Virus genome (UHGV): UHGV-1739656
DNA from: a virus
Reading direction: 5' to 3' (one strand)
DNA length: 13,338 nt
Part shown: positions 4,004-4,121 of the stretch, piece after piece
How positions within the stretch are numbered: position 1 is the first letter of the stretch
Layout: every line of letters starts with the position of its first letter
Made by a program: the position numbers and the translations under genes
Notes under the pieces: model-generated
Database searches by the model: none
What the model was told of the DNA's origin: nothing
Seen by the model: the letters and a program-made list of their open reading frames with translations, nothing else

Positions 4004-4012
4004 CATGTCACG
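3999..4012. repeat. 14-bp palindromic motif TGTGACATGTCACG, copy 1 (core is a perfect 12-bp palindrome GTGACATGTCAC)
   Basis: Read directly from sequence. Overlaps the stop codon of the RHH-like gene. An identical 14-mer is at 6264-6277. Confidence 0.8.
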
Positions 4013-4052
4013 AGTAGATTATGCATGATGAATTTGATGGGTTTTGAATACT

Positions 4053-4079
4053 GCCGCCAACTATGGCGGCGTTATTTTG
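4053..4079 (+). terminator. Putative intrinsic terminator
   Basis: GC stem GCCGCC (4053-4058) / GGCGGC (4065-4070) with loop AACTAT, followed by GTTATTTTG. Lies between the RHH-like gene and the terminase small-subunit start. Confidence 0.45.
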
Positions 4080-4085
4080 CATGGT

Positions 4086-4114
4086 ACTATTACCACAACG
4101 GTAACTATTACCAC
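4086..4114. repeat. Two direct repeats of ACTATTACCAC (4086-4096 and 4104-4114), 18-bp period
   Basis: Read directly from sequence, just upstream of the terminase small-subunit ATG. They generate the odd TITTTVTITT translation in the extended track ORF 4044-4718. Confidence 0.75.
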
Positions 4115-4121
4115 GGTGGTT

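Follow-up and report, generated by a model that had tools for sequence, protein, structure and literature searches.

The closest described counterparts of the element analyzed here are the Rep operators of the Salmonella phages SPC32H and epsilon15 (Uetakevirus), palindromes of the form (A)TTACC-N5-GGTAA(T). One of these sites precedes terS, the gene for the small terminase subunit (epsilon15 12-27; SPC32H 12-26), and this site, a terminator and a further site ahead of the portal gene are what those phages have in common with the locus described below. Rep of SPC32H is reportedly inactivated by an antirepressor, Ant, that is under LexA control. The repressor has been crystallised (PDB 5D50/5D4Z). 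PMC9638917, citing Kim et al. 2016, describes Rep on palindromic DNA as a tetramer that has two DNA-binding dimers and in which the DNA-binding dimer pairs come from different dimers, and describes Ant as releasing Rep.

The OR and OL operators of lambda, which are bound by CI and Cro, are a second point of comparison. They too are adjacent 17-bp near-palindromes that lie over promoter elements and are bound by a tetramerising helix-turn-helix repressor. However, lambda has its operators in the immunity region only and controls the late genes indirectly, through Q antitermination, whereas the operators described here directly head the packaging operon and most other transcription units. Many dispersed copies of a repressor site also silence prophage transcription units in P1 (the C1 operators) and in L5 (the gp71 'stoperators'), as appears to be the case here. 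The P1 and L5 sites are asymmetric, and the L5 stoperators act in one direction on elongating polymerase. In contrast, the sites considered here are symmetric and, at terS, overlap a -10-like element. Repeats next to a small-terminase gene can also have a role in packaging. The pac region of SPP1 (pacL-pacC-pacR) contains repeated boxes in the promoter region and the 5' end of the small-terminase gene, and these are bound by G1P. In SPP1 the boxes occur nowhere outside pac, whereas the boxes here are copies of a multi-copy repressor operator.

We analyzed a 13,338-nucleotide stretch of viral DNA (UHGV virus genome UHGV-1739656; hereafter the window), focusing on the 118-bp gap upstream of terS. 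An earlier note on this DNA had proposed the gap as a candidate packaging site. Judged from its sequence and from its counterparts in other phages, the gap is a lysogeny control element of an ordinary kind, already present in the annotation of relatives, and not a DNA-packaging signal. Very probably, it consists of a terminator followed by a predicted repressor-controlled promoter/operator region that heads the packaging and structural operon. The operator element was already known from the annotation of epsilon15, and the main value of our analysis is corrective.

The window and its relatives

Sequence similarity assigns the window to Uetakevirus, as a temperate E. coli podophage of the phiV10/epsilon15 type. 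Megablast grouped the region with phiV10/epsilon15-like podophages of E. coli, Salmonella, Klebsiella and Enterobacter, and the best match to the window among complete E. coli genomes had 84% coverage and 97.9% identity. A set of early-right genes (Ead/Ea22-like, Mom-like and DUF551) lies upstream of a gene for a 112-amino-acid Cys-rich protein. This gene is followed by the 118-bp gap, terS, terL, a convergent small gene with a tRNA-Arg gene, and then the portal and capsid genes (Table 1). The rep gene, which is part of the immunity region, is absent from the window, and we infer from relatives that this element has Rep.

Sequences upstream of terS were compared in 11 genomes of other enterobacterial genera and in several hundred viral contigs. 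The gap region was strongly conserved in relatives with TerS proteins that were only 65-90% identical. Positions 4079-4300 of the window were 81% identical to positions 1-222 of epsilon15.

Table 1. Features in and around the gap upstream of terS, with positions in the window.
Feature	Position	Strand	Sequence	Remarks
Gene for 112-aa Cys-rich protein	3665-4003	+		Last early-right gene; homologue of epsilon15 gp49
14-bp palindrome, copy 1	3999-4012		TGTGACATGTCACG	Runs over the TGA stop codon (4001-4003) of the gene for the 112-aa protein
Rho-independent terminator	4052-4078	+		Ends the early-right operon
Predicted extended -10	4082-4090	+	TG-G-TACTAT	TG at 4082-4083, hexamer at 4085-4090
O1	4089-4105 (core 4090-4104)		ATTACC-ACAAC-GGTAAC	Core perfect; predicted Rep-binding site over the -10 and the transcription start
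O2	4107-4123 (core 4108-4122)		ATTACC-ACGGT-GGTTAT	One core mismatch; overlaps the Shine-Dalgarno sequence and the first ATG
Shine-Dalgarno (SD) sequence	4115-4119	+	GGTGG	Read from the sequence; GGTGG/GGAG conserved at the same distance in relatives
terS (terminase small subunit)	4125-4718	+		197 aa; Terminase_2
14-bp palindrome, copy 2	6264-6277		TGTGACATGTCACG	Identical to copy 1; past the terminator-like hairpin of terL, adjoins the stop of the convergent small gene
Convergent small gene	6281-6622	-		After terL
Third operator copy	7213-7227		TTACC-TGAAA-GGTAA	Perfect; upstream of the 7318-7524 gene and the portal gene (7539)
Half-site	7285-7293		GGTAATAAT	3' of the third operator copy
Small gene	7318-7524			Upstream of the portal gene (7539)

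A pair of palindromes upstream of terS

The earlier note had described the gap as containing two direct repeats. The sequence ACTATTACCAC does occur twice, at 4086-4096 and 4104-4114 with a period of 18, but the true unit is the palindrome TTACC-N5-GGTAA, and the two copies of ACTATTACCAC correspond to the left half-sites of O1 and O2 plus their flanks. The unit conserved in the comparison of terS-upstream sequences consisted of two hexamers in inverted orientation, always 5 bp apart (ATTACC-N5-GGTAAT). With up to one mismatch allowed, TTACC-N5-GGTAA was found three times in the window compared to 0.15 expected, and none of 200 shuffled sequences reached three. There was no global enrichment of TGTGGTT.

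We found a perfect O1, centered 26-30 nt 5' of the ATG, in 99 of the 127 unique sequences from upstream of terS; the remaining 28 came from phages of other types, in which the upstream gene is divergent. In 77 of these 99 relatives there was an O2 with exactly one mismatch 18-20 bp past O1, and O2 was never perfect. The half that carries the mismatch varies by lineage: it is the right half here (GGTTA) and the left half in the Salmonella lineage (TTACT). The length of N5 within each operator was constant, and the distance between O1 and O2 ranged from 1 to 3 nt. The module was kept with terS where the upstream gene had been replaced or the terminator was missing.

Variation within the E. coli lineage (21 unique sequences) was located in the spacers (4096, 4097, 4099 and 4114), at the base between the operators (4106) and in the flanks. 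There was no variation in the TTACC/GGTAA cores of O1 or in the TTACC core of O2, and two singleton changes (4118 and 4123) fell in the right half of O2, which is already degenerate. The TTACC/GGTAA core was identical across every lineage sampled. Only the outer base co-varied (ATTACC/GGTAAT versus GTTACC/GGTAAC), a pattern that fits both DNA symmetry and RNA pairing. Co-variation of the half-sites with the specificity of the repressor or of TerS was uninformative, because the core was the same in all lineages sampled.

Distribution of the palindrome and its relation to Rep

On the basis of its sequence and distribution, the O1/O2 palindrome is a member of the operator family of the SPC32H/epsilon15-type CI-like repressor Rep (epsilon15 gp38 type). 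The motif was present in 10-15 copies per related genome, with approximately 0 expected; the copies are concentrated to either side of rep and lie ahead of most transcription units. There were 11 exact copies of TTACC-N5-GGTAA in epsilon15 (0.0 expected) and 10 in TL-2011b (0.03 expected), and these numbers increased to 15 and 14, respectively, with up to one mismatch. Of the 14 copies in TL-2011b, two are located on each side of gp10, a helix-turn-helix repressor-like gene, and a pair precedes another early-right gene. The O1/O2 pair precedes terS, one copy each lies ahead of the integrase gene and ahead of the portal unit, and the accessory/tailspike region contains four. Among complete genomes, the closest relative identified was the prophage of E. 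coli FDAARGOS_1268. It carries 15 sites, none of them inside annotated genes, and 9.6 kb of its host flank contained one weak site only. We also counted all perfect palindromes with two 5-bp halves and a 5-bp spacer in 17 loci of 14-20 kb. TTACC was the sole enriched half-site in 15 of the loci, which are the ones that retain approximately 10 kb of upstream sequence, and these 15 extended loci had 7-9 TTACC palindromes in a conserved layout.

Clusters of sites flanking rep were found in four complete relatives (epsilon15, SPC32H, TL-2011b and the FDAARGOS_1268 prophage) and in the 15 extended loci. In SPC32H, sites at 33528, 33604 and 33666 lie on one side of rep (33739-34335) and sites at 34390, 34407 and 34437 on the other, and the site at 12-26 lies before terS (47-640). 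The product of TL-2011b gp10, the gene between the site clusters, matched the SPC32H repressor (5D50) with E = 6.6e-42. Seven sites in the RefSeq record of epsilon15 (NC_004775.2) are labelled 'protein_bind repressor / lysogeny', and all have the sequence ATTACC-N5-GGTAAT. They include the site at 12-27, before the terS coding sequence (47-643), which is the orthologue of the site at 4090 in the window, and the site at 2931-2947, before gp3/portal, which is the orthologue of the site at 7213. The annotation of these sites may itself be a bioinformatic prediction. Unlike in epsilon15, the site in the phiV10-like E. coli lineage represented by the window is unannotated, and the right flank of O1 is C rather than T. 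A Cro-like protein could share the operator sites.

The terminator and a predicted promoter

The GC-rich hairpin and T-tract that the earlier note had pointed out in the gap were recovered by a terminator scan. The stem, formed by 4052-4059 and 4064-4071, has 8 bp including 6 GC pairs, encloses the loop ACTA and is followed by TTATTTT. The homologous hairpin in epsilon15 (39646-39672, at the end of the record) is annotated as a 'rho-independent terminator'. Among 258 loci that have O1, the terminator was present in 210, with wobble-compatible changes only, and absent in 48.

The sequence just upstream of O1, which it overlaps, resembles an extended -10 element, for which the consensus is TGnTATAAT and in which the A at position 2 and the T at position 6 are critical. 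The pattern TG-N-TA-NN-AT was found in 98 of the 99 unique relatives with O1. The only differences were at N and at positions 3-4 of the hexamer, the places of least importance in a -10. In one alignment (A2), the TG and the hexamer T were invariant columns and the hexamer A was at least 90% conserved. The TG-TA pattern was not found beside the other operator copies, indicating that it is not part of the operator. Neither a standard promoter scan nor manual inspection found a -35 element after the terminator, and the scan called no promoter there; the position expected for a -35 falls within the terminator stem. From these patterns we infer a weak, -35-independent promoter with the start of the terS transcript near 4096-4098.

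With this start, O1 would lie over the -10 and the transcription start, and O2 would lie over +11 to +27, including the SD sequence. Repression could then occur by occlusion, with one Rep tetramer perhaps bridging O1 and O2. In a lysogen, Rep on both operators would cover the -10 together with the start site and the initial ~25 nt of the RNA, and this occupancy would keep the terminase and downstream genes silent. Inactivation of Rep would then free the terS promoter.

The start of terS

The TerS protein matched PF03592 with E = 1e-29 over residues 18-173 of the 197-amino-acid form. Comparison with homologous sequences supports ATG 4125 as the start codon, rather than TTG 4044 or ATG 4122. The open reading frame from TTG 4044 does translate through the elements of the gap (...TITTTVTITTVVMMPAEP), as had been noted before, and the earlier suggestion to move the start to one of the two ATG codons is borne out for 4125 and not for 4122. 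An ATG equivalent to 4125 was present in all relatives, with the N-terminus MPAEPK... in common, but half of the unique relatives had ACA, ACC, ATT, ACG or GCC in place of the ATG at 4122. The distance from GGTGG to the ATG is 5 nt for 4125 and 2 nt for 4122. Most records annotate a 594-nt terS; the 675-nt form from the TTG is found in the phiV10 RefSeq record and in the PGAP annotation of FDAARGOS_1268.

These two public annotations are part of the case for a gap that is coding, either as an extension of TerS from TTG 4044 or as a 35-amino-acid Tyr-rich open reading frame (4028-4135) in another frame (putative products LNTAANYGGVILHGTITTT... and MNLMGFEY...). The frame from 4044 is indeed open in the E. 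coli lineage, and GATGAATTTGATGG, at the beginning of the 35-amino-acid frame, is conserved in several lineages. However, 41 of the 101 unique relatives had a stop in this frame within the 63 nt preceding the ATG, and there were indels of 1-3 nt between the elements of the gap. Of the 13 positions that vary in the E. coli lineage, seven are second bases of codons in the TTG frame, the reading frame would have to cross the terminator hairpin, and the Tyr-rich frame is interrupted by TGA or TAG stops in the 'GTGATAGTATTACC' lineages. We consider it extremely improbable that the gap is coding.

A second palindrome close to terminators

The palindrome GTGACATGTCAC reported previously is present at 4000-4011, within the longer 14-bp form TGTGACATGTCACG. 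This perfect 14-bp palindrome is a conserved element in its own right, and the sole part of the finding that the operator reading does not account for. Its two copies in the window bracket terS-terL. Related genomes had 2-3 copies, which were within approximately 45 nt of an intrinsic terminator in every case examined. Copies lie downstream of terL, of gp18 in epsilon15 and of ant in TL-2011b, and another is found where the gene for the 112-amino-acid protein stops. One copy was always on the stop codon of this gene, and the palindrome was also retained at a locus with a different upstream gene. An additional small gene has been inserted directly after TGTGACATGTCACG in many of the E. coli relatives.

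The 112-amino-acid protein matched the phrog_536 'transcriptional regulator' family (E = 6e-54), and the records of TL-2011b and epsilon15 label their homologues 'transcriptional regulator'. The homologues begin with MAKS..., which corresponds to GTG 3665. Searches of Pfam, NCBIfam and PDB sequences with this protein gave no match, and its AlphaFold model was of low confidence (pLDDT 63). It is conceivable, though we think it improbable, that the 14-bp palindrome is a separate, undescribed regulatory site that the 112-amino-acid protein binds, modulating read-through of the adjacent terminators. If so, there would be a DNA-site-dependent antitermination/termination switch for the late genes on top of direct repression by Rep. 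An arrangement of the Q type (Q gene, pR' and tR') was considered and rejected: the position of the gene is suggestive, but the protein matched no antiterminator family and the module persists without the terminator.

Alternative explanations for the gap

The packaging site proposed earlier would have TerS oligomers bind the repeats upstream of their own gene, similar to G1P of SPP1, with the first cut by terminase nearby. The repeats lie directly upstream of terS, and their module stays linked to this gene across mosaic boundaries. In addition, TerS belongs to Terminase_2, the family of SPP1/SF6 G1P (PF03592 match; 'HHpred 3zqp' in the epsilon15 note). The related phage Tyrion is reported to be circularly permuted, implying headful packaging from pac, and a pac site should accordingly be present somewhere in the genome. 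However, a pac site is expected to be unique or almost so, and this motif is found 10-15 times per genome, before the integrase, early, tailspike and lysis units as well as flanking rep. The half-sites are constant despite differences in the helix-turn-helix region of TerS (for example, SPNTAAVKASVMM versus SEKTAAKFASQNM). The genome records also start at different places, equivalent to 4004 for phiV10, 4079 for epsilon15 and ~4047 for SPN1S, which suggests authors' conventions rather than mapped ends. With the repeats identified as copies of a multi-copy repressor operator, and with the epsilon15 orthologue annotated as a repressor-binding site, the proposal is not supported, and we regard a pac function of these repeats as very unlikely. 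It is possible that pac is inside terS or nearby, but these repeats do not indicate it.

Two other explanations accept the palindromes as regulatory and differ in how they would act. With no local promoter, terS could depend entirely on polymerase arriving from the early-right operon, which would pass the terminator at 4052-4078 by read-through or antitermination, and Rep at O1 and O2 could stop this polymerase in the manner of the L5 stoperators. The lack of a -35 and of a called promoter past the terminator would fit such a roadblock, as would the location of the operators 3' of the terminator, inside what would be the 5' UTR. Furthermore, the upstream gene for the 112-amino-acid protein is placed as Q is in lambdoid phages and might help read-through, and the 14-bp palindrome adjoins this terminator and others. 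On the other hand, a roadblock leaves the invariant TG-N-TA-NN-AT next to O1 unexplained, and the TG-TA-AT/O1 module is kept in the 48 loci without the terminator. The sites are also symmetric, while L5 stoperators depend on orientation, and the upstream protein matched no antiterminator family in Pfam, NCBIfam or PDB sequences. We therefore consider a roadblock unlikely. Alternatively, the half-sites might act in RNA, with ATTACC/GGTAAT hairpins in the terS leader that hide the SD sequence or that form an attenuator with the terminator. The region 4040-4140 is predicted to fold at -39.7 kcal/mol (z = -5.8 compared to shuffled sequences), the minimum free energy structure pairs ACCAC (4092-4096) with the SD sequence, and some changes in the half-sites, such as ATTACT, are compatible with G-U pairing. 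But the strength of the fold is accounted for by the terminator plus the palindromes, and the palindrome flanks divergent promoters and lies upstream of units on both strands. The spacing between the two halves of O1 is fixed at N5, whereas the right half of O1 and the left half of O2 are separated by a variable 1 to 3 nt, a difference that would break any conserved hairpin between those two. Moreover, the predicted transcription start is inside O1, so that the partner for the SD sequence would not be transcribed, and Rfam gave no match, the only hit being to rseX (E = 0.9), far below threshold. An RNA element is, in our estimation, highly improbable.

Implications

Repression of a terS promoter by Rep at O1 and O2 is the reading that we favor, and it has practical consequences. 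The repeats upstream of terS should not be taken as pac in the design of phiV10-based reporter or transducing phages. The terS genes in the phiV10 RefSeq record and in the PGAP annotation of the E. coli prophage carry a false 27-codon extension at the N-terminus that crosses the terminator and two operators. Unlike lambda, these phages appear to have a dispersed-operator architecture, with the prophage repressor placed directly at the beginning of the packaging operon and of most other transcription units. This arrangement bears on how induction is understood and on how such phages are engineered.

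A repeated palindrome flanking the terminase genes

The genes for the small and large terminase subunits (terS and terL) are flanked on both sides by an identical 14-bp palindrome, TGTGACATGTCACG. The relatives that we examined carry two to three copies per genome, one of which invariably lies across the stop codon that ends the gene for the 112-aa regulator, and in every case examined an intrinsic terminator lies within about 45 nt of the palindrome. Many E. coli relatives have an extra small gene (~70 aa) between the palindrome and the terminator; homology between the window and these relatives breaks at ~4024-4027.

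At position 4071, within the terminator upstream of terS, the window carries G; every other unique variant of the E. coli lineage (20 of 20) carries T. With G in this place the stem gains a wobble pair and the terminator's U-tract is shorter (GTTATTTT vs TTTATTTT).

Annotation of the terS start and of other genes

Public annotations differ in the start of terS (window 4044-4124). The 675-nt form, which starts at TTG, reads across the terminator and both operators (predicted Rep-binding palindromes, TTACC-N5-GGTAA) in the gap before terS; the 594-nt ATG form is the choice of most phage records. A Tyr-rich frame covers the entire gap and overlaps the terS start. We rejected it as a conserved ORF because stops are present in the same frame in other lineages. 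Despite this, its opening bases, GATGAATTTGATGG, are kept in several lineages. Close to the terS start there is just one further repeat, a tandem 10-bp near-repeat (ATAAACGCAA / ATCAACGCAA, 4147-4166) within the 5' end of the gene. It provides codons for YKRKSTQ and probably stems from a conserved basic peptide.

The tRNA-Arg gene adjoins a convergent gene, 6281-6622 (-), and is also annotated in SPC32H and the E. coli FDAARGOS_1268 prophage. The match of the Mom-like ORF to the PHROG 'Mom-like DNA modification protein' was strong (E = 9.5e-42); that to Pfam Mom was weak (E = 1.2e-4) and failed the cut-off.

Features in the window and in related genomes (L numbers, loci of relatives)
Feature	Genome	Position	Strand	Details
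14-bp palindrome	window	3999-4012, 6264-6277		TGTGACATGTCACG
14-bp palindrome	epsilon15 (L299)	2141, 19516, 39611		TGTGACATGTCACG
14-bp palindrome	TL-2011b (L298)	11499, 32281		TGTGACATGTCACG
Extra gene, ~70 aa	L004, L011, L339, L351, L379	equivalent to window ~4012-4027
Long TTG form of terS	phiV10 RefSeq NC_007804.2	41-715		675 nt
Long TTG form of terS	E. coli prophage NZ_CP069501.1 (PGAP)	I6J98_RS16345		675 nt
Tyr-rich ORF	window	4028-4135	+	frame 2; 35 aa, MNLMGFEYCRQLWRRYFAWYYYHNGNYYHGGYDAC
tRNA-Arg	window	6814-6890	-	anticodon TCT; accessory region between terL and portal operon
Mom-like ORF	window	1737-2267	+	early-right region; Pfam and PHROG matches
Operator-pair region	window	7213-7300		with (half-)site
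Operator pairs	TL-2011b (L298)	5172/5234, 8227/8289, 14819-14900
Operator pairs	epsilon15 (L299)	32555/32617, 35907/35969

Paired operators

In the window, TL-2011b and epsilon15, operator pairs are often spaced by exactly 62 bp, or approximately six helical turns. Between the paired operators is a conserved element, CATATGTGGTT(T), followed closely on its downstream side by the proximal (half-)site, GGTAATAAT. The 7-mer TGTGGTT by itself was not enriched genome-wide. The 62-bp pairing and the conserved intervening element suggest that the repressor loops over small promoters, and the element is possibly the site of a second regulator.
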